This document shows positions 2,969 through 24,297 of a stretch of 28,423 nt of DNA, piece after piece. The position numbers and the translations under genes were made by a program. Source of the DNA: Thermoproteota archaeon (lineage in GTDB: Archaea > Korarchaeota > Korarchaeia > Korarchaeales > Korarchaeaceae); the NCBI GenBank assembly GCA_037917625.1, contig JAVCBY010000010.1, positions 1 through 28,423 on the forward strand, given 5' to 3'. Under the pieces are notes generated by a model that made no database searches, was not told the origin of the DNA, and saw nothing but the letters and a program-made list of their open reading frames with translations. How positions within the stretch are numbered: the first letter of the stretch is position 1; each line of letters starts with the position of its first letter.

Positions 2969-3997
2969 TCAGAACCAAGACTCTAATCCACCTCCTGAGA
3001 GCAATCTATAAGATTCCTCTATCTCATTTATAACTTTCCTCACTCTTTCCTCAGAGAACTCGTGCTCCTCTACCATGAACTTCAGGAGCTCGTCGCTCAT
3101 AGGTCTCCTCAGAGATGTATCATAATCTTCAGTAGTTGGGGGGTTCAGGAAGAATTCGTAAATAGATATGGGATCCACATCAAACTCCCAAGGTACTCTA
3201 GAGAATAGATCCTCCGGCCTCTTATACTTCTTAACGAGCTCCAGAGCTCTCTTCACACCTATCCCTTTTACACCTCCTAAGTTGTAATCAGTCCCAACTA
3301 AGATCCCTATCATTATCAACTGCTCCCTGTTGATCCCGTTCCTCTTGAGGACGCTCTCAAGCTCTATCAACTCCGGATTTATATCGACGTAAACATCCTT
3401 ACCCGGGAGCTTCCTCTTACCAGTTATCGTGAGGTTCCTTATCAGCCTAGGAGCACCGAAGAGGAGGGAATCATAATCTTGAGATGCTGTAGCCCATACA
3501 TCGCCCTTCATAGCCATATAAGCTGCTTGAGCTTCTCCCTCACTCGGGGCTTGGACGATAGGTACGCCCATCAATTTTAGTATCGTCTTACAATCCTCCA
3601 CTATATCTCCCGTTATATTAAGAGCTGCTTGAGCGTACTTCCTGGCCTCATCAAGGTCTCCAAGCTCAAGGGCTTCCTTCCATTTCAATTCAGCCTCCTC
3701 TCTAGCTCTAACTCTCTCCTCTATAGCTCTAGACTTGAAAGACGGCTTCTCACCATCGAACACGTAGATGGGGATTATCCCCTCCTTCAGGAAGTTAGCG
3801 GTCCTGTAGAAGATACCCGAGTGAACGCTCGTTATCTCGCCCTTGCTAGTCATTAAGGGGGTACCGTCAGGCTGCCTAACTTTCGCTAAGAATTGATACA
3901 TCGCATTGAAAGCATCTAAAGCGATCCTCTTCCCAGCTATATCAGAGAGCTCCAACTCGACTTTATCCTCGATAAGCTCCCCGATCTTAACTCCCAT
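2969..3997 (-). CDS. fen: Flap endonuclease FEN-1
   Basis: MGV start, [34 protein letters not shown] and GTDYN motifs; C-terminal LESWF. Confidence 0.98.
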
Positions 3998-4049
3998 CTG
4001 GGGTCATTATATATGGTGGGAAGGCAATTAAAAGACATCAGGTAGGAAT

Positions 4050-5114
4050 ATGATAGCCCTAGTAGGTCCCTACTATCCAGCGGTAGGCGGAGTTCAGGTA
4101 TACATGACATACATGGCTAGGGAGCTCCTCTCTCTGGGCTTCGAAGTCACTGTAGTGAGCTATAAGGGTTCTAAAGCTAAGTGGGGTGAGAGGGTCATCG
4201 AGGCCCCCACACTGAAGCTCAAGGGGCTCAGGGGGGTGAGCTTCATCTTAGGGGCTACTAACATATTGAGGAGGGAGAAGCCGGATTTGATAATCTCACA
4301 TTACGCCTCGACATCAGGGATTTCAGGTCTCCTCTCCGGACTGAATTACTTCGTAGTATTCCACGGGAGCGAGCTGAGGCTCCCTAAGGCTCTATCTAAG
4401 ATAGCTGCATCTAGATCGAGGGCAGTGATATGCGTGAGCAACTGGCTCAGGGAGAGGCTGGAGTCCTATGGGATAGGAGTGGATGCTGTGATACCTGGTG
4501 GAGTTGAGAGCGATCTCTTCGCCTCCCTTCCCCCTAAGGAAGTAGCTAGAGAGAGATTGGGGATCGAAGGGAATATAGTGCTCTCAGTGGGCTCATTAGT
4601 TAGGGCTAAGGGGTTCGATCTGATCCCAGAAGTAGCTAAGATCGTGAACTCTAAGTTGAGAGCGAGCTTCCTCATAGTGGGAGGCGGCCCCGAGGAGGAA
4701 GTAGTAAGGAGGAGAGCTAGGGAGGAGGGTGTGGAGGATCGCGTCATCTTAGTGGGGAAGAGGAGTTATGAGGAGACTGCAATTTACTACAGGGCAGCGG
4801 ATCTGCTGCTCCATCCTGCTAGGTATGAGGGGTACGGCCTAACGGCTCTCGAATCTCTAGCTGCTGGGACTCCAGTGGTGGCCACTGACACGGGTGGGAT
4901 GAGGGATGTCGTGATAGATGGAGTGGATGGGTTCCTCTTGGATAGGGATGCGAGCATGATAGCTGAGAGGGTGATTCATCTACTCCAGAACGATAATTTG
5001 AGGGAGGAAATGGGGAGGAAGGGAAGGGAGAGAGCTTTGAAGAGGAGCTGGAGGGCAGTAACTCAGGAATATATCGATTTAATGAGGAAGAAGGTCCCCG
5101 AGATCTCTCAATGA
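4050..5114 (+). CDS. Glycosyltransferase family 4 (GT-B)
   Basis: YPAVGGVQ, KGFD and EGYGLTALESLAAGTPVVATDTGG motifs. Confidence 0.93.
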   Translation: MIALVGPYYPAVGGVQVYMTYMARELLSLGFEVTVVSYKGSKAKWGERVIEAPTLKLKGLRGVSFILGATNILRREKPDLIISHYASTSGISGLLSGLNYFVVFHGSELRLPKALSKIAASRSRAVICVSNWLRERLESYGIGVDAVIPGGVESDLFASLPPKEVARERLGIEGNIVLSVGSLVRAKGFDLIPEVAKIVNSKLRASFLIVGGGPEEEVVRRRAREEGVEDRVILVGKRSYEETAIYYRAADLLLHPARYEGYGLTALESLAAGTPVVATDTGGMRDVVIDGVDGFLLDRDASMIAERVIHLLQNDNLREEMGRKGRERALKRSWRAVTQEYIDLMRKKVPEISQ

Positions 5115-12721: not shown

Positions 12722-13107
12722 TCCGGGCTGCGCCATATCTCGATGAACCTGGGCACTATGAGTATCGGGGGATAGCCTCTATCCCTTATCATGACTAGAT
12801 CTCCGCCCATCTCCAGTATCCTCTCCTTCAGCTTCTGTACCATGAACTTGAGCTTCTCCTCCCCCTCCGAAGCTAGGTCATCGTACCTCAGGAGCACTAT
12901 GTTCCCCTCATTTATCTCGTTCAATATCTGCTCCACATCCTCAGCGCTCCTCAAGTTCATCGGCTTGACCGTTATAGCTTTCTCAGATAGGAACCTAGGT
13001 CTAGCTGGCTCAACCTCGATGGGCTCCTCCTCGAACTCCTCCTCTTCCTCATAATATTCTTCCTCCTCCTCACGCTTGCCCCCGAATATCTTCCTGAAGA
13101 AACCCAT
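12718..13107 (-). CDS. sepF: Cell division protein SepF (archaeal type)
   Basis: Amphipathic N-terminus MGFFRKIFGG, acidic linker, core EDVEQILNEINEGNIVLL...MGGDLV...ILIVP. Confidence 0.85.
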   Translation of the reverse strand: MGFFRKIFGGKREEEEEYYEEEEEFEEEPIEVEPARPRFLSEKAITVKPMNLRSAEDVEQILNEINEGNIVLLRYDDLASEGEEKLKFMVQKLKERILEMGGDLVMIRDRGYPPILIVPRFIEIWRSPD

Positions 13108-13173
13108 GATCGCACCCAACATAGGGGGAGGGCGCGGTATTTAAATTATGAAGGGCTTAAGGCTGGGGTCGAG

Positions 13174-13416
13174 ATGTCGAGCGCCATGAGGTACCTCGCT
13201 AAGAGCATGAACGGAAGCGTGCTAGTGATACTGAAGAACGGGGTTTACGTTAGGGGAATACTGAAGTCATACGATAATCACCTCAACTTAATACTTGATA
13301 ATGCAGAGGAGATAATGGAAGGGAATGCGAAGAAGCTGGGGAAGAGGGTATTGATAAGGGGGGATAACGTTATAGCTATATCGACTCAGAAGATAGAGAT
13401 AGGTGAGGGAGAATGA
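13174..13416 (+). CDS. Sm-like archaeal protein (LSm/SmAP)
   Basis: [19 protein letters not shown] and LIRGDNV; upstream of rpl37e. Confidence 0.96.
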
Positions 13417-13574
13417 AGGGAACACCATCTATGGGAAGAAGAAGTAGAGGACAAACTCATGTCAGGTGCAGGAGGTGCGGAAGACACTCTTTCAACATCA
13501 GAAAGGGGTACTGCGCTTCATGTGGCTTCGGAAGGAGCAAGAGATTGCGGAGTTATGCATGGGCGAAAGGTTAA
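13413..13574 (+). CDS. rpl37e: 50S ribosomal protein L37e (not in the ORF track)
   Basis: [53 protein letters not shown]. Confidence 0.97.
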
Positions 13575-13578
13575 AAAA
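13565..13578 (+). promoter_or_regulatory. BRE/TATA promoter for the tRNA pair, overlapping the rpl37e stop
   Basis: GAAAGG-TTAAAAA lies about 25 nt upstream of the tRNA-Ala start. Confidence 0.55.
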
Positions 13579-13598
13579 GGGCCCTGTAGAATAGATGG

Positions 13599-13671
13599 GG
13601 GCCGGTGGCGCAGTTGGTAGCGCGCCCGCTTGGCATGCGGGAGGTCGGGGGTTCGAATCCCCCCCGGTCCA
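13599..13671 (+). tRNA. tRNA-Ala(GGC)
   Basis: GGGCCGG/CCGGTCC acceptor with G3:U70; anticodon arm CCCGC-TTGGCAT-GCGGG. Confidence 0.97.
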
Positions 13672-13675
13672 CTTG

Positions 13676-13747
13676 GCCGGGGTAGCTCAGAGGGAGAGCG
13701 TCCGGCTGAAGACCGGAAGGTCGAGGGTTCAAATCCCTCCCCCGGCA
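13676..13747 (+). tRNA. tRNA-Phe(GAA)
   Basis: GCCGGGG/CCCCGGC acceptor; TCCGG-CTGAAGA-CCGGA; 4-nt spacer after tRNA-Ala. Confidence 0.97.
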
Positions 13748-13775
13748 CTTTCTTAGTTTCAAGGTCGATTTTACG

Positions 13776-14480
13776 TTGAGGGCGCACGCTTCCGTACTTG
13801 ATATGAATATCCGGAATTATACTTTACAGTCAAAGCAGCAATCAAACTTCTCCTTTAGCGGGTCGGCAAGTGCAACTTATGCTTACAGACCACTTCAACC
13901 ACCTCCACAAACAACCACATCCATTTGCTCATGTAGCGATTGCAAATACTACTCTTCCGAATTGTAATAGCCTGTGAAGAATGAAAAGTGTGTGCGCGAG
14001 TTACTTTCCAGTCTTCAGGTTGCTCAGCAAACACAAATTATTACGCTTGTAAGTATAGAAGTTACTCTCAAACACGACCTAAGGTCTACATCCTAACACC
14101 TTATACAGCGCTTAGTAGAGGATTAAAGGTTTCGGTAGAGTTTGCTTGTGAAGAATGGAAAATACTGTTAAAAATTTGATTTTAGAGTTAAGTATTGATG
14201 GAAGGAAGTGGGGCAAGTGCTTTTTAAATAAAAAGGGTTTAATCAACGACTTTGAGTGGAATGCTTCTAATAATAAAATGTCAGGAATGTGTGGATGAAA
14301 AAACAAGTGGAACTATAATTCAACGATGTGTAAGCATAAAGATTACAACTTATGGGCAAATCTAAGTTTAGCGAAAGATGTGTGGATGTGACATTCGCAT
14401 GTAAACTACCAACACTTTCTCCCGGAGCTCACACATTAAATGTAATAGCGAAAGTCCATGGAAGTGAATTGTTGTTCTGC
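13776..14480 (+). pseudogene. Decayed 3' part of a Cys/Thr-rich surface protein
   Basis: Broken frames give NYT..FTVKAA..SGSASATY (end of an Ig-like NEW3-type domain), TTSTTST/TTTSICSCSDC, further Cys-rich pieces and TLSPGAHTLNV, with many stops and frameshifts. Confidence 0.55.
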
Positions 14481-14519
14481 TTGTTGCTATCAATATTCTT
14501 ATCAATAAGCATAGACACC

Positions 14520-14676
14520 AAAATTGAAAAAATAAGAGAAGATAGCCTGATAAATGCAAGATTATTTCGCTTGATATTGGAGGAAAGATTGTTTCTATTA
14601 GGACAGCGAGGAAAATTCCAAGGAAAATATTTTGATAAATTGTTGCTGTTAAAAAGCTTATTATTTCTTGTAACAT
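14520..14676 (-). pseudogene. N-terminal fragment of a DedA family membrane protein
   Basis: LGIFLAVLIETIFPPISSEIILHLSGYL matches the DedA ExxFPPIPSE motif; similarity is lost after about 50 aa. Confidence 0.7.
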
Positions 14677-14785
14677 TCTATTGATTTTGATGTTTAGGAT
14701 TAAAAAGGATGAAAATTTAAAATAAATAGCAAGAAATCAAGGCCGTTTAAAAGTTTGCAAGGGCTGTTTTAAGATCTATCAAAAA

Positions 14786-14870
14786 TAGCCCCGGGCGGGT
14801 TCGAACCGCCGTCTCAGGCTCCAGAGGCTTGCGCTAAATTCTGCGTCCTTGACCGCTAGACGACGGGGCT
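14786..14870 (-). tRNA. tRNA-Gln(CTG) with a 12-nt intron at position 29/30
   Basis: Reverse complement: AGCCCCG TC GTCT AGCGGTCAA GGAC G CAG[AATTTAGCGCAA]GC CTCTGGA GCCTG AGAC GGCGG TTCGAAC CCGCC CGGGGCT A; A1-U72 pair; TATA (TTTATAA) at 14895-14889. Confidence 0.9.
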
Positions 14871-15229
14871 TTAATTTAAAATTTTTTCTTATAAACTTTT
14901 AACAATAAAATAGTTCATATACTATTTTGTAACTTTTTTCCTTGGACTGAAGGATTTATAATAAGAGATTCGCATTTTCGGAGTACGTACTATTTAAATA
15001 TGAGATAAAGACTGCTTTATTTTCAAGATAACTAAGTTGGAAGTAATAGATATTTGCAATAGAGCGATGTGGTAAGATTAATGAAAAATTTGCTATTTTA
15101 GGGTTGGTTGTTTGTAGTTTTAAAAATTACAAATCGAACCAGAGGTTTTATACAGATGGGGAGTTTCTGAAACTTAGTAGAGAATTAGAATGTTTAAAAG
15201 TATTTATATAAACAAATTTAATAATACCT

Positions 15230-15691
15230 ATGAAAAATAGGAGAAAAATCCTACTTTTAATTCTTGCTGTTGTATTATTATCTACTTTTCTCTCAATTTT
15301 CTTAATAAAGAAAGTTAAATTTAACGGAGATAAGGTATTATCAGAAATAGCAAAGCTTAATCCTGATGAAGCAACAATTCGAATTTTAAAATACGCTGAG
15401 TGTAAAACTTTGGAGAAAAAAGAGAATGTATGGATTGTTAAAGATTGTAAGGGTGACTATTACTTTAAGCTTTTTCTCGCAGAAGATGGATATATGCTTG
15501 GAAAATGTACGGAATGGAAAACTCCAAGGGAAGCTTTTATAAAGCTTAGAGACTTTTTGCCTATAAAAGGATGCGCTGATGTAAATGCTGAAGATAGACT
15601 TCTTCGCGAATCAAATTTTGCAAGAGTATATGAGATTTGTGGTTTAAAAATAGCTTTTGTTGAAGAATGTATAGTTGGGGTGAGGTCATGA
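15230..15691 (+). CDS. Membrane-anchored hypothetical protein
   Basis: Basic N-terminus plus TM helix and several Cys; TTTATATA upstream; 4-nt overlap with the next gene. Confidence 0.8.
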   Translation: MKNRRKILLLILAVVLLSTFLSIFLIKKVKFNGDKVLSEIAKLNPDEATIRILKYAECKTLEKKENVWIVKDCKGDYYFKLFLAEDGYMLGKCTEWKTPREAFIKLRDFLPIKGCADVNAEDRLLRESNFARVYEICGLKIAFVEECIVGVRS

Positions 15692-16605
15692 ATAGAATTA
15701 TCCTATCTGCAATTTTCTTTTCTTTGATCTTTTTTAGTTTAATTCATTTTGTTATGGCCGCATGTTGTACCGATACTGGTAACTGTGCTCATGCTTTTTG
15801 TACAGATGGAAGGAGTTGCCCAAAAGGTTGGAAGTCTTGCACTTGTGCTACATACTGTTGTCCTGGTTGTAACTGTTGTCCGACCACATCCACCATAAGA
15901 ACAACAACCACCACCATTTCTTGCCCATCCGGCACTGACTGTATGACTGCTACTGAATGCTTTGGTGCCGGAGGTTCTTGTATCTCCAGTGATTGTGGTT
16001 ATGGGTGTTGTTGTAGTTTCTCTAAAACCACCACATCCACCACTCAACCCACCACATCCACCACCGTATGCCATAATAAGAGTAATCCATGGACTAGAGC
16101 AACAGCTTGTTGTGGTAGTGCAACAGATTGCGTGGATCGTAACGGAAATTGTGTAAGTAGCGGTAATTGGGCAAAGGCCGATAATATCAATAATGTGTTG
16201 GATTATTGTGATGGAGGGAGCTGGATAACTGGTTGGTGCGTAGGAGCTAGTAGAAAATGCTTAAGTGGGTGCATATACACTACCAACACTCGTGGATGCA
16301 ATAAGTATAGTGCCGAGTGTCCTCCTTATGACTATAAAGTTGTTCTTGCTAAATGTCCAACAACCGCTACTCTTCTAGAATGTACTAAGGATGAAGACTG
16401 TCCCAATGGACAATGTTGCAATACATTTTCTACCCCACCCCAATGTAAGGAAAAAGGTACCATAATTTCTTACGAAGGAAAATCTTATCTGTGCGACCCT
16501 CCGGAGGGATTTGTCGAAGTTAAAGACGAAGTTAAAAACCCAACAAAAAGCTTAAGCTTCTTTGATATGATAATAAGCTTTTTCTCTCACTTCTTCAAAA
16601 AATAA
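15688..16605 (+). CDS. Secreted Cys-rich modular protein with Thr-rich linkers
   Basis: Signal peptide; 38 Cys in 305 aa; TTST linkers; amphipathic C-terminus FFDMIISFFSHFFKK; GGGGTGAGG RBS. Confidence 0.85.
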   Translation: MNRIILSAIFFSLIFFSLIHFVMAACCTDTGNCAHAFCTDGRSCPKGWKSCTCATYCCPGCNCCPTTSTIRTTTTTISCPSGTDCMTATECFGAGGSCISSDCGYGCCCSFSKTTTSTTQPTTSTTVCHNKSNPWTRATACCGSATDCVDRNGNCVSSGNWAKADNINNVLDYCDGGSWITGWCVGASRKCLSGCIYTTNTRGCNKYSAECPPYDYKVVLAKCPTTATLLECTKDEDCPNGQCCNTFSTPPQCKEKGTIISYEGKSYLCDPPEGFVEVKDEVKNPTKSLSFFDMIISFFSHFFKK

Positions 16606-18617
16606 AATTCAAAATTCGGTCTCAAAAACCAATCTACATCTATTGTTCCATCTTCCTTTTTATAAACATAAGAACCGCCAATAAATCCGAAGATTTCTCT
16701 TACCCTATCTTTTAATAAACCATCTTTACAAAGATACAATCCAAACCCGTTGGCAGGCCCTATTATTATTTTATCTCCGGATTCGCTATTAAGTTTCTCA
16801 GCGACATGATCAGGTAAAGATATTACCCATTCATAGACCGATACACCACGAGGAATTGGGCTTATATAAACGAAGTAAGTTGGAAAACCAAAAGCTCTTA
16901 ATGTTTGAGGTATTGTATAGTTAATTGTATATATTTCCCTCACAGGAGGATTCCATCTCTCATATCCCATCACAAACTTCATAAGATGCCAGTAATCCCA
17001 ATTTTTTGTGACGAATTGATCTACTCCATTCAAATCTTTTATTTTATTCCACAAATTATCAGGATTCTCTGTCATAATTTTCCGAAGTTCATAAGGTTTA
17101 AGATCAACATATTGTAGGTGAGTATTTTCAAGCCTCTCGGCGCCTCCTCTGTCTAAAACCCACTGGTAATAATACAACCAGGCCGGAACATCACCCAATA
17201 ACTCGGTTCTCACCTTTCCATCAGGATACAAGCTACTTATTATATTATACTCTTCTTCAGCCTGAATTAGAGCTCTCTTTGCTCCTTCTAATCCTGCAAC
17301 TACTTTCTTTTGTTTTATGTCAAAAGTTGCATTATCTAAGAACCAGAAGAAAAACAACGCTTGCCTTCTATTGTTGGCATCTTGATATAGTAAATCCAAT
17401 TTATCGGAATCGTACCAAGGAAAATCTCTATTGTAAAGCTTATCTCCTCCGCCAAGTTGAGGAGCTTTATTTGAATATAAATTCCATTGAAGCATTATCA
17501 AATCCCAAACATCATTATCTGTTGGTTTAAGAGTTCTTCCATTAATAAACAGCTCAGCATATTTTATTCCATATAGAGCATCAAAAATTGAATAGTCATT
17601 TGCAATTATTTTTCCGTTTAAACCTTCAAACATCTCTGGATGTTTTAAAATATCAAAACCAGAATCCTCTATCAATTTCAAATGCTTTGCTAGCATCCAT
17701 GTCTCTCTTCCAACATCAGGAAATAAAGAATAATGCCTCCTATATACCGAATGAAAGATTATTGGAGAAAAATCAACTAGCTTATTACCATATCCATCAA
17801 TTTGAGTAGCTCTAGTTAACAAAGAGATTTCATCAAAATTTTCTGGTAATTTCCTATCAGTAACACCAATTCCATAATAGGCTATGGCATTTATTGTGGC
17901 ATTTTTAGCCAATTCCTTATCAAAACCAAGTCTTAATCCTAAATCAGAGGAATAATCAATAGTTTTCATAGGATCTAATATTTTAAAACTTTGTATGTTC
18001 TCATAGAGTGATTTTATTTTATAAACCTCGTCATACAACCCTTCAACTAAATGAGAAAAATTCCTCGAATATGCTAGCTCTTCGTCAGTTATTTTGCTAT
18101 CAGAAGCCTTATCTCTCAAATAATTAATAAATATTGGTATATCAAGAATTTCTTTGTTGTTTGCCATCAATTCAACAAATTCCCTTTCATTTCTATCTTG
18201 AATTCCATCTTTATCTAATGGCTTAATAATATCAATATATTTTTCCAACCCTGAATCCAAAGCTTGCTTAAAATTAAGATTTGGTTTTAAAGGATCTGTA
18301 TTATAAACAAAAATTTCCTCAGGATCCGACAATCCATCATTGTCGGTATCTTTCTTGTTAGGATCTGTATGATATTTCTCTATTTCATCGACGTCTTTAA
18401 TTCCATCACCATCGCTATCTCTATTTCTTCTCCAGTTTTCATAAGCAAAATAAGCACCTATCAAACTAGCGGTTCCAATACCGCCTATAATGATAGCTCT
18501 ACCTAGAGCATTCTTTCCGACAGAATCCTTAGCATGTACTAAAGTGCTGCTCTCCTCATAAAATTGTCTTACATCATCTTGATAAAGTCCCTCCTTCAGT
18601 TTCTTGAGGACATTCAC
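16587..18617 (-). CDS. 676-aa membrane-anchored protein with Ca-binding DxDxDG (TSP3-like) repeats and an unknown C-terminal domain
   Basis: TM segment AIIIGGIGTASLIGAYFAY, then DSDGDGIKDVDE...TDPNKKDTDNDGLSDPEE...TDPL. Confidence 0.8.
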   Translation of the reverse strand: MNVLKKLKEGLYQDDVRQFYEESSTLVHAKDSVGKNALGRAIIIGGIGTASLIGAYFAYENWRRNRDSDGDGIKDVDEIEKYHTDPNKKDTDNDGLSDPEEIFVYNTDPLKPNLNFKQALDSGLEKYIDIIKPLDKDGIQDRNEREFVELMANNKEILDIPIFINYLRDKASDSKITDEELAYSRNFSHLVEGLYDEVYKIKSLYENIQSFKILDPMKTIDYSSDLGLRLGFDKELAKNATINAIAYYGIGVTDRKLPENFDEISLLTRATQIDGYGNKLVDFSPIIFHSVYRRHYSLFPDVGRETWMLAKHLKLIEDSGFDILKHPEMFEGLNGKIIANDYSIFDALYGIKYAELFINGRTLKPTDNDVWDLIMLQWNLYSNKAPQLGGGDKLYNRDFPWYDSDKLDLLYQDANNRRQALFFFWFLDNATFDIKQKKVVAGLEGAKRALIQAEEEYNIISSLYPDGKVRTELLGDVPAWLYYYQWVLDRGGAERLENTHLQYVDLKPYELRKIMTENPDNLWNKIKDLNGVDQFVTKNWDYWHLMKFVMGYERWNPPVREIYTINYTIPQTLRAFGFPTYFVYISPIPRGVSVYEWVISLPDHVAEKLNSESGDKIIIGPANGFGLYLCKDGLLKDRVREIFGFIGGSYVYKKEDGTIDVDWFLRPNFEFYFLKK

Positions 18618-18630
18618 AAGCGATTTAGGT

Positions 18631-18654
18631 GCGAAAAATATTTAAAATTTTCGC
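18631..18654. promoter_or_regulatory. Bidirectional BRE-TATA-BRE promoter / inverted repeat
   Basis: GCGAAAA-ATATTTAAAA-TTTTCGC, centred between the divergent starts at 18617 (-) and 18669 (+). Confidence 0.65.
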
Positions 18655-18668
18655 TTATAGTTAATAGT

Positions 18669-20069
18669 ATGAGAGTAGATGAAAAACTTTTACATTATTC
18701 AAGTAAAGATGGAGTTGAATATAAAAAGACTCTAGAGGAAGTCACAGCTTTTATTTCTTATAAATCCCTAGAGGATGAAGAAAGAAAAGAATATGCTAAG
18801 TATCTCGATGAATTGGGGCCAGCCCTATTCCATCTTTCACCCTCTGAAGTCTCAATGATTGAACTATCCCTGCCCCCTTACAGTGAAATAGAGATGGAAG
18901 TTTATAAAAGGATAGGAATAAGCGAAGATGAGATAAAAAAGTTAAAAAGATATAGGGAAAGAACGAGAAAATATGTGTTCAGAGTTCCTGGCATAAATGT
19001 GCTGGCAATCTATTTACTAAAATTTCTCTCAATTTTCGATAAGGAGCTTAAAGAGGAAATTAATGTTAAAAGGCAGATTAACGAGAGGCTTTTTACGAAA
19101 GAATATAAAGATATCCTGGAGGAAAGATCAAAAGAAATTCTCAGATCTTCGAGATTAGCAACCATACCAATCTATGTCTCTTCTGGAGTTCTTCATTACC
19201 TAAGGAGCTCGGACATCACAGTAGAAATAGCCTATCTTTCCTCCATATTAATATTAAATATTTTAACTTATTTACCCTATATTTCAGAAAATTTTAAAAG
19301 CAAAAAATACAGAAAGATAGTTCCTTACATTCAAATGTTAACGCTCTCCTCGTTTGGAGCTTATATTTACTACAAAAGCTTCGACCCGATGCTGATGGGA
19401 GCCTATTTACTAACGGTGACACTGCCTTATTGGATCCTCAGGCTTTTCGAGATTGGTTTAAGTCGAACTATCTCTAATTTTATAGAAAAAGGATGGCCTT
19501 ACTTTCCAAAAATAATCAGAAAAGCTATAGATAAGTTGAGAAGATTTTTAGCAAACATAAAAGTAAACCCCTTTAATGAAAAAGAAATTTATGAAGAACT
19601 TTACAACGCATCAGTGAGGCTGGAGGGGGTCTCTTCCTTACCATCCTCTGTCTTTGAAGAATTTAGGGAAAAATTAAGCAAAAAGATTATAAAATTAGAA
19701 AATCCGGAAGAAAAGCTCGCCTTGCCTTATGTTTTAGGCTACTACAGAAAGGAAATTGTTCTAATAGAAGATGATAGAAAAATGAAAATTGTGAATAGAA
19801 GAGCCCTGGAGGAATTGGCGAAATCATACGGAATGTCCACGGAAGATTTCGAAAGAGAAGTCTCGAAATTTCCCTGGAAATATTTAGAGGCTGATCTAGT
19901 TGACGGAAAATTAGTTTATGGAAGAAGCGTTATAGGCATGTATAACTTTAAGAATGAGGCAATAAGAAAAGGAGTTGCCGCAAAAGAGGTGGAGGCTTGT
20001 TTGATAAATCTCTACGCTAAAGATCTCATAATGACTAAATATCTTCAAATCACTGAGGGTAATTCTTAA
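18669..20069 (+). CDS. Hypothetical polytopic membrane protein (466 aa)
   Basis: Long ORF with a central cluster of 3-4 hydrophobic helices; ATG 18669 preferred over TTG 18564 because the latter overlaps the divergent gene. Confidence 0.8.
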   Translation: MRVDEKLLHYSSKDGVEYKKTLEEVTAFISYKSLEDEERKEYAKYLDELGPALFHLSPSEVSMIELSLPPYSEIEMEVYKRIGISEDEIKKLKRYRERTRKYVFRVPGINVLAIYLLKFLSIFDKELKEEINVKRQINERLFTKEYKDILEERSKEILRSSRLATIPIYVSSGVLHYLRSSDITVEIAYLSSILILNILTYLPYISENFKSKKYRKIVPYIQMLTLSSFGAYIYYKSFDPMLMGAYLLTVTLPYWILRLFEIGLSRTISNFIEKGWPYFPKIIRKAIDKLRRFLANIKVNPFNEKEIYEELYNASVRLEGVSSLPSSVFEEFREKLSKKIIKLENPEEKLALPYVLGYYRKEIVLIEDDRKMKIVNRRALEELAKSYGMSTEDFEREVSKFPWKYLEADLVDGKLVYGRSVIGMYNFKNEAIRKGVAAKEVEACLINLYAKDLIMTKYLQITEGNS

Positions 20070-20116
20070 TTTTCATTCCTAAAAACATTTAAAAATCGTG
20101 GGAATTAAAATAGTAT

Positions 20117-20600
20117 ATGAACATAATGACAGAAGCATTAATGATATCATTTTTTCGTTTTCCGATTTTTCTCAATCAAGTTTTACTGATTAAGCGATGT
20201 TTGGGTGAGTTGCGAACCCGTGAACATATCGGTCAGAGATTTGTAGTTAGTGGTACAGCATATTAGTTGTTCATGGATGACAATCTTCTTGCTTTACAAC
20301 CACTCAACCCACAACCACCTCCACTGCTGTTCCGCTATGTACTAGAAAACCCAACAATATCACCCTCTTCCAAAACAGACTCTCCCGGCCAAACACTAAC
20401 TTATTACATAAGAGCAGCGATAACTCGGCTTGACTCACCAACGTTTAACTTAACATTTCCATCTCGCCCAGGCTTCACTGCAAATTTATCCGCTGTATAG
20501 AGGGTGAAGTATGCTTTCCTTCTGATAGTTTTTCTAAAATTAGTCCTGGCATCTTCGGTTCAATTTAACTCCCCCTCAACAACATTGACCGGAAATCTCA
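20117..20600 (+). pseudogene. Decayed 5' part of a Cys/Thr-rich surface protein with an Ig-like (NEW3-type) domain
   Basis: TTTAAAAA promoter and ATG 20117 with a broken signal-like peptide; SSCFTTTQPTTTSTAVPLCTR, then a frameshift to NPTISPSSKTDSPGQTLTYYI...TFNLTFPSRPGFTANLS. Confidence 0.6.
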
Positions 20601-20783
20601 TGTATCCGGACATCGGTGGGTCTAGTATGGGGAGAGCGTTCACTCGATCAGCTACTTTTTCATAAAATTTTTACTTTCCCTCATAGTTAATTATATTATT
20701 TAATTTGGCTGATAACTTAAGTTGGGGCTAGTGTCACCATGGGAAAAGATAACATAATATTGAGAATCCTCGACATAACTTAG

Positions 20784-22142
<1,359 letters not shown>

Positions 22143-22159
22143 ACATTTTTTATTCCTAG

Positions 22160-22621
22160 ATGATACCCGGGAGGCCCGAGATATTCAGAGTTGGCCCTAA
22201 GTACCTGATGTTAGTTGGGTTAAGGGGCAAGCCGAGGAATAGAGCTGAAATCGCTCTGATTCCTGCCTCTCTGATAGCCTCGAAGAGGCACCTCCTGATG
22301 GCAGCGATAAGGGCGATTAGGAGCTTCTACTACGGTGTCAACATATCCGATAAGTTCGCTTATGAGGTGTGCATATGCCTCCTCGGCATCAGGGAGGTAT
22401 CGAGGATCATAAAGCTCCTTTCCGATCATGATGAATATGCTTTAATTCTGCATTGTGATGAGATAAAAGATTGTTTAAGGTCTCTTATAAGTATAACGAT
22501 GGAAGATGTGGCTCTATCCGATATTGAAGCAACTTATGAGCCTCAGAAGATGGTCAGTTGTACTGGTAACGTTGAATGCCTCGCGATGGAGCAGGGCATT
22601 TCCATTGAGCTCGAGAGGTAG
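22160..22621 (+). CDS. cgi121: KEOPS complex subunit Cgi121
   Basis: IASKRHLLMAAIRAIRSF..GVNISDKFAYEV....GIREVSRII follows the Cgi121 pattern. Confidence 0.75.
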   Translation: MIPGRPEIFRVGPKYLMLVGLRGKPRNRAEIALIPASLIASKRHLLMAAIRAIRSFYYGVNISDKFAYEVCICLLGIREVSRIIKLLSDHDEYALILHCDEIKDCLRSLISITMEDVALSDIEATYEPQKMVSCTGNVECLAMEQGISIELER

Positions 22622-22655
22622 CAATATTAAATAGTACGGGGGGACTCAAGAGAGT

Positions 22656-22976
22656 ATGTCATCCGATGAGTACCTTCAGGCTAAAGCTGAGGAGATACTA
22701 GCTGAGTTGAATCAGGTTTTAGTTCAATTAGCGACACTTAGGGCTGAATACAACTCGGTGAGTGAGGCAATAAGGAGGCTCGAGGGACTTCCGGAGGTGG
22801 ATGAGATATTCGAGAGGGTCGGGGTGCTCTACATAAGGAGGGACAGGGAATCCGTGCTTTTAGACCTGAAGGCAACTAAGGAGACCCTAGAGGCTACGAT
22901 AAAATCCCTTGAGAAGAAGGAAAGAGACCTCAGGGAGACCTTGAGCAGAGTGGCTAGCTCTACTCGAAGTAGCTGA
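22656..22976 (+). CDS. pfdB: Prefoldin beta subunit
   Basis: Coiled coil - beta hairpin (IFERVGVLYIRRD) - coiled coil; 106 aa. Confidence 0.85.
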   Translation: MSSDEYLQAKAEEILAELNQVLVQLATLRAEYNSVSEAIRRLEGLPEVDEIFERVGVLYIRRDRESVLLDLKATKETLEATIKSLEKKERDLRETLSRVASSTRSS

Positions 22977-24297
22977 GTAAGTTCTCCTCGAAGTCTTCCT
23001 TCATCTTTCTCGGTATTTGAGCTCCTGCTGCATGCTTATGCCCCCCTCCCCTTCCTCCAACTGTAGTAGAAGCTTCCCTCAATATTTCATTCAGATCTAA
23101 ACCACTCGCCCTATTCGTGAGCCTGGCAGATACCTTCAGCATATCTCCCTCAGTCTCAGCGTATCCTATTATCAGGTCCACGTTCCTGATGCTCTTACTC
23201 ATTATGGATGTCACGGTGCTTATGATCGTATCCTCCGCTATACCTTCATCTATGAATGCGACCTTCCCGATAACCCTGGGCTTGAGATCCCTGAGCAAGC
23301 TTGAGAGGTGCCTTTTATAATCCTGCAGGACCGATAGTGCTGAGGAGAGTATATCGCCCCTCATCCCAGATGCTAAGAGAGCTCCCAAGTAGCCCCTGCC
23401 CATCCTACCGCAAGCGTTGAGTATTGTTGAGAAGCTAGATAGATCCCTCAGGGGGGAGCCTTTCGGCTCCATCAAGTTCACATAAGTGTTCCCTAGGAGA
23501 GACTTAGCTTTATCCAGGCTCTCAACTCTCTTAACTAACTCGTTCATCAGGTCCCTCTTCTGCTCCTCGCTCAGATCGGATAGCGTGACCCACTTATCCC
23601 CTATCTTTATTGGGATCCCTAAGGATTCTATCAAGCTCAAAGCACCAGCTGAATCATCCGAAACCCCCCTTATGAATGGTTCCACAGTCCTCTCTAGGGA
23701 GGAGACTAGAGGGTAATCAGGGCCACCGAAAAGCCTTATCTCCTTTTTGACCTCTATTATGCCTCTCTCCATCCCCCAATTCAGTATAGCTTCGTTCAGC
23801 CCACTGAAGCCCCCGTTCTCCTGGAGGTCGCCTAGAGCTCCAACTAAGGCCACTGGTACCATCGAGTGATCCTTGAAGAACTCCCTGTAAAGGAGGAAGC
23901 ACAAGCCTGAGGAACTAACATCCCTATCCCCATCTATCCCCTCAGTGAATGGATTCAACATCGGGATCTCGTAGCTGGATGGCCTATGATGGTCTATAAC
24001 GAAGACCCTCTTGCCCATCGATTTCAAGAGCTCGGCTTCCCCTGACCCCAGATCCAGGAATATGTAAAGATCGTAAGGCTCCTTCTTGAGCCTCTCTATC
24101 AGAGAATCGCTTATGTATTTGACTGAACTTAAGTGGAAAGGTACCCCAAATCTCTTGAGGATGGAGATAAATATACCAGCTGAACTGAGCCCATCAGCAT
24201 CTATATGCGAGATCACCCTGACGTGGGAGCTCTTAAAGCTCCCATAAAGCTCGTCCGCGAACTCCTTGACCCTATCAAAGAACTTGCTTAATGCCAT
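22960..24297 (-). CDS. RecJ/Cdc45-like DHH phosphoesterase (GAN-type)
   Basis: SHIDADG, DLGSG, IDHH, GALGD, LNACGR, GGGHKHAAG; directly downstream of rps15. Confidence 0.92.
   Translation of the reverse strand: MALSKFFDRVKEFADELYGSFKSSHVRVISHIDADGLSSAGIFISILKRFGVPFHLSSVKYISDSLIERLKKEPYDLYIFLDLGSGEAELLKSMGKRVFVIDHHRPSSYEIPMLNPFTEGIDGDRDVSSSGLCFLLYREFFKDHSMVPVALVGALGDLQENGGFSGLNEAILNWGMERGIIEVKKEIRLFGGPDYPLVSSLERTVEPFIRGVSDDSAGALSLIESLGIPIKIGDKWVTLSDLSEEQKRDLMNELVKRVESLDKAKSLLGNTYVNLMEPKGSPLRDLSSFSTILNACGRMGRGYLGALLASGMRGDILSSALSVLQDYKRHLSSLLRDLKPRVIGKVAFIDEGIAEDTIISTVTSIMSKSIRNVDLIIGYAETEGDMLKVSARLTNRASGLDLNEILREASTTVGGRGGGHKHAAGAQIPRKMKEDFEENLLSYFE

Follow-up and report, generated by a model that had tools for sequence, protein, structure and literature searches.

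Gene transfer between archaea of different phyla is documented for members of the DPANN group. In the sections of Podar et al. (2008; PMC2614490) considered here, several genes are named as apparently transferred from Nanoarchaeum equitans to Ignicoccus hospitalis; the cases given there are single, dispersed and old genes (one pair is about 40% identical), whose transfer was deduced from trees and which often replace the host copy. For hot-spring 'Candidatus Aenigmarchaeota', the parts of Li et al. (2021; PMC8407114) used here describe horizontal gene transfer (HGT) mainly in the inward direction, from TACK archaea and Euryarchaeota (stress and defence genes), treat recent HGT as a clue to partners, and conjecture a Pyrobaculum host. 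A 2026 survey of 101 Korarchaeota genomes (PMC12787533) reports HGT of mcr genes, and in the portions of its text that we used DPANN archaea and Aenigmarchaeota occur only in the reference list. Here, we analyse contig JAVCBY010000010.1 (C25) of a Korarchaeaceae metagenome-assembled genome (MAG; GCA_037917625.1, 1.22 Mb in 116 contigs), which in its whole length of 28,423 bp is the window of this study, and within it a foreign insert of 6,772 bp with a low guanine-plus-cytosine (GC) content of about 0.33 (positions 13817-20588), hereafter the island. The island carries a tRNA, gene remnants and a four-gene surface module encoding a 153-amino-acid (aa) protein, a Cys/Thr-rich secreted protein, a 676-aa membrane-anchored protein and a 466-aa protein. 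In our assessment, it is probably a chromosomal fragment of a low-GC Aenigmatarchaeota (DPANN)-type archaeon that was inserted in one Korarchaeum lineage.

Like the Nanoarchaeum/Ignicoccus cases, as far as the cited sections present them (PMC2614490), the island would be an instance of DPANN genes moving into a larger archaeon of another phylum. It differs from them in being a contiguous multi-gene block with donor composition, gene order, a tRNA, exact junctions and an empty site; furthermore, Nanoarchaeum and Ignicoccus are physical partners, whereas no association is known for the island's two organisms. Compared with the Aenigmarchaeota study, in the parts used here (PMC8407114), the donor-type phylum and the habitat are the same, but the direction is reversed (into Korarchaeum) and the cargo is a surface module. 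Inter-archaeal HGT involving DPANN is already known; the present case is unusually well preserved and includes an uncharacterised, strain-variable surface module that crosses phyla. A literature search over titles and abstract openings, with supplementary gene lists outside its range, returned no description of the module or of a Korarchaeota-Aenigmatarchaeota transfer. Two further types of island invite comparison. Archaeal tRNA-linked islands and integrative elements use tyrosine integrases and tRNA-derived att repeats; the locus resembles them in being a block of foreign composition beside a tRNA that is absent from close relatives, but it has no integrase, begins 68 nucleotides (nt) past the tRNA, has only a 6-bp repeat at its flanks and carries ordinary donor chromosomal genes. 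Strain-variable low-GC 'metagenomic islands' encode cell-surface proteins in archaea and bacteria; the likeness to these lies in the low GC, the secreted and membrane proteins and an allele replacement between strains of one species, the difference in a module shared across phyla at 60-78% protein identity and in an origin that can be traced via linked housekeeping-type genes.

The island is an insertion with exact boundaries, whose empty site is preserved in relatives and which is present in several independent assemblies. For the empty-site comparison we used the three closest Korarchaeum genomes (G016, G012 and G017, with the junction loci L013, L014 and L015, respectively; L numbers denote fetched loci and metagenome contigs). 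In G016, window position 13816 is joined directly to 20589 (flank identity 96.8% and 93.5%), and the junctions of G012 and G017 are equivalent; because the two positions are adjacent in these relatives, the insert comprises 13817-20588. An 8,027-nt contig from a public sequencing run (X6) also shows the empty form, with 13816 joined to 20598. The insertion point lies downstream of a conserved host block (LSm-L37e-tRNA-Ala-tRNA-Phe) that was matched in 29 of 31 related genomes; in the window, tRNA-Ala(GGC) (13599-13672) precedes tRNA-Phe(GAA) (13676-13748, plus strand; found by ARAGORN and by Rfam RF00005 with 75 bits). On the other side of the island, a class-III aminotransferase gene (20784-22142, plus strand; Pfam Aminotran_3, E 1.4e-117) is the normal neighbour of tRNA-Phe in relatives without the insert, a synteny that the original prediction, made from the letters alone, had proposed to examine. 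The last host bases before the insert are one copy of CCGGAA (13811-13816), which is part of a target palindrome, TCCGGA-N11-TCCGGA, and host sequence resumes with a second copy (20589-20594), so that a 6-bp direct repeat stands at both junctions. For the empty site, folding predicts a hairpin of -8.6 kcal/mol. A repeat search of the window and the comparison of the junctions revealed no longer direct repeat, no terminal inverted repeat and no tRNA-derived att repeat at the island ends. Compared with G016, G017 and the window, G012 (L014, positions ~770-800) has the 11-nt spacer of the palindrome in the opposite orientation, as would be expected from a flip of the hairpin loop.

An assembly chimera of Korarchaeum DNA and DNA of a low-GC organism might be suspected, as the MAG is fragmented into 116 contigs, one of which is the window in full, and many relatives of the 676-aa protein occur at high summed depth in the same runs; we reject this explanation as having next to no chance of being correct. 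Host sequence lies on both sides of the island and is contiguous in relatives, and the junctions are bridged in other assemblies and runs. When Logan contigs of four public runs (X1, X2, X3 and X6) were aligned to window positions 13000-21400, the left junction was bridged by contigs of X1 (464 nt) and X3 (231 nt) and the right junction by contigs of X1 (2,694 nt) and X2 (3,430 nt). The right junction is also spanned by two metagenome contigs that were found via the 676-aa protein and run from the island into the host flank, L057 (window 17990-22907, 97.9% identity) and L024 (17990-20907, 97.2%). Depth in X1 is alike in the flanks (14.8 and 14.1) and in the island contigs (10.8-16.6). Since independent contigs bridge both junctions at similar depth, the island is not a mis-join, in agreement with the original prediction, which had asked for spanning reads and a coverage comparison; X1 is possibly the sample behind the MAG and in that case not independent, while the other runs and loci are independent. 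The flanks themselves encode archaeal housekeeping proteins (an FttA/aCPSF1-type beta-CASP protein, SepF, LSm, L37e and the class-III aminotransferase), and beyond the nearest genome the aminotransferase has its best named relative in a 'Candidatus Korarchaeum sp.' MAG (85%). An ordinary tRNA-Arg(CCG) is located at positions 1161-1236.

The composition changes sharply at the island. In 500-nt windows, GC is 0.48-0.53 at 13001-14000, 0.28-0.40 across 13751-20500 and 0.47-0.51 from 20751 onwards (0.44-0.54 on both flanks overall), with a local bump of 0.43-0.46 at 15751-16500 that corresponds to the Thr/Cys-rich gene. The genome has a mean GC of 0.475 (2,277 windows of 1 kb, standard deviation 0.026), and only four of its stretches fall below 0.38, two of them, the longest, being the island. 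The tetranucleotide distance between island and host is 0.049, compared with a mean of 0.011 (standard deviation 0.003) and a maximum of 0.036 among 261 host windows of the same size, and GC at third codon positions (GC3) is 0.21-0.34 in four island genes vs. 0.53-0.59 in four host genes. As these values lie outside the host range, the switch is a real one, well beyond what chance would give; elsewhere the contig is host-like throughout. The anomaly in GC, tetranucleotides and codons had been predicted and is borne out by these measurements. Of the extent first proposed, 13750-20650 with the switch right after tRNA-Phe, the island itself stood and its limits had to be moved to 13817 and 20588, the sequence remaining host-like for 68 nt past tRNA-Phe. 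As candidates for the archaeal TATA promoters of the original prediction, TATA-like strings can be seen ahead of the 153-aa gene, of the tRNA and of the 676 and 466 genes, which form a divergent pair, in surrounding DNA that is itself AT-rich. The sole other sizeable low-GC stretch of the host genome (C49:2501-4500, GC 0.32-0.38) contains a 531-aa open reading frame (ORF; 3037-4632, minus strand) that adjoins two ORFs resembling, by eye, RAMP-type CRISPR-associated proteins; it resembles neither the island nor any of the fetched loci.

The identity of the donor is indicated by three linked genes, encoding a tRNA, DedA and AlaX. A 51-nt pattern of the island tRNA with its intron was matched only twice in a collection of about 185,000 genomes (one per species), and both matches are in Aenigmatarchaeota MAGs (G048 and G128, assigned to one phylum by the genome collection), on contigs of 15 kb and 141 kb, respectively, with a GC of 0.29-0.30. 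In both, a DedA gene adjoins the tRNA, as in the island, and in G128 an AlaX gene lies on the tRNA's other side. The metagenome locus L028 (GC 0.34) shows the exact order of the island with DedA intact, namely DedA, tRNA (96.5% identical) and the 153, Cys-rich, 676 and 466 genes, and in L045 the order is tRNA, toxin-antitoxin genes, AlaX and the 153, Cys-rich, 676 and 466 genes. The AlaX of L045 is identical to that of G128 at 95% of protein and 92% of DNA positions, two G048 contigs carry AlaX and a 676 homologue together, and the AlaX of the L045 and G048 module contigs is 92-95% identical to the copy beside the tRNA on the 141-kb contig. Together with the DedA phylogeny and the tetranucleotide profile given below, this linkage of tRNA, DedA and AlaX ties the left half of the island, and via synteny the whole block, to an Aenigmatarchaeota-type chromosome. 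The toxin-antitoxin-type run of L045 (6916-11474, 4 kb, with PIN, AbiEii, HEPN/nucleotidyltransferase and HepT genes) stands between tRNA-Gln and AlaX; it is absent at the same place in G128, which indicates that the tRNA-DedA-AlaX neighbourhood is itself variable in the donor lineage.

The DedA sequences give a further view of the donor phylum. The DedA of L028 is matched in 169 of 301 genomes of the phylum of G048 and G128, with an identity that declines gradually (82, 79, 62, 54, 54, 49% and so on), and in 37 of 43 genomes of the host phylum at 26-41% identity only. In a tree of 22 sequences, the island's DedA remnant forms a pair with L028 (support 100/97), and the two fall within a clade that also holds G048 and G128 (98/96); this clade stands among other genomes of the Aenigmatarchaeota phylum, and the host's own DedA (C13) groups with G016 and G012. 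Placing the remnant together with ten Korarchaeota DedAs was rejected (log-likelihood difference 38.1; approximately unbiased (AU) test, p 0.014), and none of ten island ORFs has a paralogue elsewhere in the host genome. It is hardly credible, then, that the region is ancestral to Korarchaeum, AT-rich for functional reasons and precisely deleted in relatives: surface-protein genes are often AT-rich and strain-variable, and the 6-bp repeat could in principle mediate a deletion, but the empty site is clean and identical in three relatives and in one metagenome contig, the 676 family occurs in one of 43 genomes of the phylum (that of the window), the host has its own, unrelated tRNA-Gln(CUG) and DedA, the GC3 values argue against a korarchaeal ancestry, and the DedA tree contradicts it. 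A donor of the DPANN type is well supported. The idea of a piece of a DPANN chromosome, for which a phylogeny of DedA and other ORFs had been recommended, therefore stood as regards foreign, Aenigmatarchaeota-type DNA (tRNA, DedA tree and gene order), and was only partly right in its argument from the YLCDPP motif, which is taken up below.

Whether donor and recipient were more than neighbours is a separate matter. One contig of X1 carries both intron differences typical of the L028 tRNA (window positions 14831 and 14836) at a depth of 33.6, compared with about 14 for the Korarchaeum flanks, so that a donor-type locus co-occurs with the recipient. This tRNA variant in the same run is the only hint of the proposed symbiont-to-host transfer and Korarchaeota-DPANN association, which were otherwise not borne out; transfer between neighbours in one community would explain the observations just as well.

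The left part of the island consists largely of remnants, in line with the pseudogenes predicted there. It begins with decayed sequence that includes a Thr-linker-like remnant (13817-14065), followed by a frameshifted gene remnant (14066-14380) detected by tblastx in three frames (E 1.8e-19 to L059 and 3.3e-15 to L112, which is contig C26 of G048), whose intact relatives adjoin 466-like genes in these low-GC contigs (positions 7037-7921 in L059). Next comes the N-terminal remnant of a DedA/VTT gene (14368-14676, minus strand; best conserved at 14467-14676), of which 70-85 N-terminal aa are left; over 70 aa it shares 80% identity with the DedA of L028, which is intact and 205 aa long, confirming the DedA fragment noticed at first, and its identity to the Aenigmatarchaeota DedAs of L109 and L110 is 56-61%. 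The L028 protein carries the Pfam domain VTT_dom (PF09335 family, E 3e-25), and the remnant itself has no Pfam match and does not retain the full VTT domain; because only the N-terminal part is left and no Pfam domain is matched, the island copy is a DedA-family pseudogene. The tRNA (14786-14870, minus strand) scores 42.2 bits in Rfam against a gathering cut-off of 29 and has 12 extra nt in the anticodon arm, which we place as an intron between positions 29 and 30. Their removal leaves 73 nt that at minimum free energy fold into a perfect cloverleaf, whose anticodon stem has 5 bp and whose anticodon loop reads CUCUGGA, and in the L045 copy the pair 28:42 has changed from A-U to G-C (one compensatory pair); an intron-containing tRNA, as had been predicted, is thus present. 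In our reading of the anticodon and of the intron position, it would be a tRNA-Gln(CUG) with a non-canonical intron, for which a bulge-helix-bulge motif is not established. Two other readings, both given by ARAGORN, a four-base anticodon and a Leu(CAA) tRNA with a 5-nt intron, were rejected, since the Gln(CUG) reading with the 29/30 position gives a perfect stem, a standard loop and a cloverleaf. The host has its own tRNA-Gln(CUG) on C51 and nothing else in its genome resembles the island tRNA, which by sequence is a redundant, donor-type copy.

The module lies to the right of these genes and remnants. Its first gene (15230-15691, plus strand) encodes the 153-aa protein, which has an N-terminal hydrophobic segment (residues 3-31) and 6 Cys, matches no Pfam, PHROGs or NCBIfam family and has homologues in the same position in L028 (62%), L045/L047 (47%) and L068/L069 (59%). 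The Cys/Thr-rich secreted protein (15667-16605, plus strand) comprises 312 aa if translation starts at 15667 and 305 aa if it starts at the ATG at 15688; the shorter form has 38 Cys and 40 Thr. The protein has a signal-like N-terminus and ends in a conserved domain (YLCDPPEGF) followed by an amphipathic helix. The combination of a YLCDPP motif and a C-terminal amphipathic helix, pointed out in the original prediction, indeed corresponds to a conserved domain, in which six residues (C48, Y62, C64, D65, P66 and E68) are invariant in an alignment of 21 sequences (A3). A profile of this domain found 135 cluster representatives among 1.84 billion proteins (E<=1e-3), and the domain is nearly always C-terminal, in proteins of very different length. 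In most loci, the Cys/Thr-rich gene is convergent to the 676 homologue, as in the window.

The 676-aa protein (16587-18617, minus strand) is predicted to be anchored by a transmembrane segment (residues 41-59) and to expose TSP3 repeats and a large ectodomain. The repeats match Pfam TSP3_bac (PF18884) in two stretches (E 1e-12, 48.1 bits against a cut-off of 25); beyond TSP3, no described family was found with Pfam, NCBIfam or fold searches, and the best scores in the ESM Atlas (0.79) were uninformative. Its AlphaFold2 (AF2) model is confident (predicted local distance difference test score (pLDDT) 89.3, predicted template modelling score (pTM) 0.85), with a helical and alpha/beta ectodomain; Foldseek returned no match at E<=1e-3 in the PDB or BFVD, and the best VIA Z of 5.8 concerned helical segments only. 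A transglutaminase/papain-like fold for residues 368-676 reached a VIA Z of only 4.7, and the family alignment (A1) has no Cys or His among its 15 invariant columns (H326 is nearly invariant), so that this weak match has no support from conserved residues of a catalytic Cys-His-Asp triad. The 466-aa protein (18669-20069, plus strand), whose gene is divergent from the 676 gene, has a central helical region predicted to form a membrane hairpin, and its AF2 model has a pLDDT of 83.5 and a pTM of 0.80. It has 11 homologues, all unnamed, and many loci contain 466 and 676 homologues together; again, Foldseek gave no PDB match at E<=1e-3, and the best VIA Z (7.2) covered the helical hairpin only. These fold searches were run with whole-protein models and do not show that the folds are new. 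Downstream, the island ends in a non-coding or decayed region (20070-20588) that has no Pfam family, a weak tblastx match (E 4e-4) to L113 (contig C33 of G048) downstream of a 466-like gene, and a Thr-linker-like remnant at 20299-20324, which resembles the sequence at 13889-13914 and the linkers of the Cys/Thr-rich gene (repeat family D1).

All four module ORFs are intact while the neighbouring genes are broken, and strains that are 99-100% identical in the neighbouring DNA differ by about 20% in the ectodomain segment; on these grounds, the module is probably in use. The strain difference became apparent in L024 and L057, which come from other strains of the same Korarchaeum species. They are nearly identical to the window in the aminotransferase (99.1%), in the 466 gene (99.6%) and at the island's right end (98.9-99.0%), whereas the N-terminal part of the 676 gene is 89.6% identical and the gene body 81-84%, the low identity extending into the Cys-rich gene. 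A sliding comparison places the breakpoint at ~18300-18400; identity is 99-100% on its right side and falls to 70-90% on its left side. The N-terminal anchor of the 676-aa protein is therefore common to the strains, and the ectodomain and the Cys-rich neighbour are another allele (77-79% protein identity); a boundary as sharp as this speaks for recombination with a different allele. That allele may have come from inside or from outside Korarchaeum, since a monophyletic origin of the three Korarchaeum 676 copies was not rejected (AU p 0.38), in an 18-row clade that is poorly resolved. Such an exchange of ectodomain alleles between strains would fit a role in surface recognition. As the two large proteins have no clear fold relatives, their role was derived from their topology, the TSP3 repeats, the richness in Cys and Thr, the conserved adjacency of the genes and the swapping of alleles, and these features suggest that the module is most likely a membrane-anchored cell-surface complex for recognition between cells or between cells and particles.

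The distribution of the module is broad and patchy. Among the candidates scored, 223 homologues of the 676-aa protein were found at E<=1e-3, many of them 60-78% identical; nearly all are unnamed hot-spring metagenome proteins, and the named ones are from Aenigmarchaeota, Thermosphaera, Thermofilum adornatum, Verstraetearchaeota and others, the named MAGs with the family including Thaumarchaeota, Thermoproteota, Brockarchaeota, Bathyarchaeota/Bathyarchaeia, Thermoproteales and Culexmicrobium. The family is present in 7 of 301 genomes of the G048 phylum and in 17 of 401 of the G050 phylum, whose named members are of the Thermoproteota type. Such a low and scattered prevalence indicates that the module is an accessory, widely exchanged cassette rather than a DPANN marker, and it is here that the original prediction, in which Cys/Thr-rich YLCDPP proteins were held to be typical of DPANN, needs correction: the domain is real, but with the linked 676 family in 7 of 301 and 17 of 401 genomes the module is not DPANN-specific. 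Where the surroundings have a GC of at least 0.41, the 676 gene, usually together with its Cys-rich neighbour, forms a low-GC pocket (pocket/surroundings 0.36/0.49 in L033, 0.35/0.51 in L044, 0.37/0.49 in L079 and 0.34/0.42 in L082), and on low-GC contigs the 676 gene has the same GC as its surroundings. The flanks of the higher-GC loci have no DNA similarity to the host genome except for L038 (66-67% to C33), so these loci derive from other organisms. In an unrooted tree of 69 rows with many unknown hosts, the copies from hosts with a GC of at least 0.45 are scattered (8 changes for 13 rows), and the window copy lies in a well-supported clade whose successive neighbours include the Aenigmatarchaeota-linked L028, L111, L076/L018 and L047. 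The conserved core of the 676 gene (window 16653-17776) has a summed contig depth of 200-780 in X1 and X3, compared with about 14-18 for the Korarchaeum flanks, which implies many different carriers of the family in these communities. Three tandem 676-family paralogues occur on a low-GC contig labelled Thermoproteales (L083, i.e., G050:C23, ~19256-23194).

This patchiness (1 of 43, 7 of 301 and 17 of 401 genomes) is one argument for the main rival explanation, which is that a mobile element (integrative, plasmid, virus or vesicle-borne) shuttles the module across phyla, Aenigmatarchaeota being one recipient, and that tRNA and DedA were gained by imprecise excision from such a recipient before the element reached Korarchaeum and the mobility genes were lost. 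We consider this unlikely, though worth keeping in view: the low-GC pockets (L033, L038, L044, L079, L081, L082 and L077), the scatter of the copies from high-GC hosts in the 676 tree, the position of the island next to a tRNA gene, a classic landing place, and the 6-bp direct repeat at its flanks would all suit such an element, but the gene content does not. As the original prediction had stated, the island encodes no integrase, replication or capsid protein, and families of transposases or viruses were likewise absent from searches with Pfam (8 plus 24 ORFs), PHROGs (10) and NCBIfam (10). Among the eight ORFs first searched, Pfam recognised only TSP3_bac, and it found nothing in 24 further ORFs of at least 40 aa; none of ten ORFs matched PHROGs, and NCBIfam gave only two sub-threshold matches among ten. 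No integrase or transposase domain was present among 104 ORFs around eight related loci carrying the module. A virus origin was rejected, as the 676-aa protein has no relative in IMG/VR, no PHROGs match and no BFVD fold match at E<=1e-3. The structure of the ends likewise gives little support to an element: for a transposon or insertion sequence there is neither a transposase family nor a pair of inverted repeats at the two ends, and for an integrase-type island there is no integrase remnant, the insertion is outside the tRNA gene, and CCGGAA is the sole flanking repeat, with no att repeat derived from the tRNA. The imperfect Thr-linker-like repeat (13889-13914 and 20299-20324) was dismissed as a pair of element ends, its copies lying 72 nt and about 290 nt inside the island ends and being read as gene remnants. 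Moreover, even if an element had been involved, the last donor would still be Aenigmatarchaeota-like.

A donor that was some other low-GC thermophilic archaeon outside DPANN, with the Aenigmatarchaeota label arising from binning or labelling, seems improbable to us. The close module copies of G048 are all on short contigs (2.5-6 kb), and low-GC contigs labelled Thermoproteales (L083, GC 0.31) carry the family too, but the tRNA-DedA-AlaX neighbourhood lies on a 141-kb contig of a MAG of G048's phylum, and the DedA similarity, which decays gradually over 169 genomes, has the island remnant nested inside it. Several observations nevertheless weigh against our view of the island as an Aenigmatarchaeota-type fragment with a surface function. 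The shortness of the G048 contigs just mentioned is one of them, and MAG bins of short low-GC contigs can be wrong. The tetranucleotide profile of the island correlates with two Aenigmatarchaeota MAG contigs at r 0.94-0.96 and with the host at 0.285, a similarity to the donor-type contigs that is largely driven by GC content. Of the seven genomes with the 676 family in that phylum, only G048 has close copies, and G128 has no 676, 466 or 153 gene despite the tRNA-DedA-AlaX locus on its 141-kb contig. Among the sampled donor candidates, none exceeds about 75-85% identity to the island in DNA (96.5% in the tRNA), which places the true donor outside the sampled genomes. The CCGGAA repeat fits a microhomology crossover and, equally, a target-site duplication left by an event akin to transposition; it could also be the core of a site-specific system that has since been lost, and the joining mechanism set out below is accordingly a proposal. 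Finally, the function proposed for the module is read from the predicted topology and the domain content only, and neither of the two large proteins has a recognisable fold relative.

With the island taken as a fragment of an Aenigmatarchaeota-type chromosome, its history may be pictured as follows. A linear or circularised fragment of donor DNA would have been taken up by contact, through vesicles or as free DNA, and would have entered the chromosome without a dedicated recombinase. It might have been joined at the hairpin-forming palindrome TCCGGA-N11-TCCGGA by illegitimate, microhomology-type recombination, which would leave CCGGAA on both sides. The parts of no use to the recipient (DedA, the gene at the left end and the end regions) would then have decayed, and the four-gene module would have been kept intact as useful at the cell surface, where the complex could combine a TSP3 stalk that binds calcium and bears a large ectodomain with a glycoprotein-like partner rich in disulfides and with two membrane proteins.

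Inter-archaeal transfers involving DPANN are usually deduced from single-gene trees, and here a whole donor segment is still recognisable, which provides a concrete and datable case of Aenigmatarchaeota-type DNA entering Korarchaeum. Neither group is in pure culture, and the island offers a testable lead on contact partners in hot springs. It also draws attention to an uncharacterised module with two large, confidently modelled proteins that have no clear match among solved structures. A more far-reaching idea, to which we give little weight at present, is that the module is a DPANN-host interface: Aenigmatarchaeota-like epibionts would natively use it for attachment or recognition, and the larger archaea they contact would repeatedly have captured it. 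If this were true, the captors would be Korarchaeum, Thermoproteota, Bathyarchaeia and Brockarchaeota, the host might display the module to manage, mimic or block its epibiont, the low-GC pockets would mark the host range of DPANN archaea, and the allele swapping would reflect an arms race at the contact surface. Should the module act at cell-cell contacts, it would provide a handle on the recognition between DPANN archaea and their hosts.

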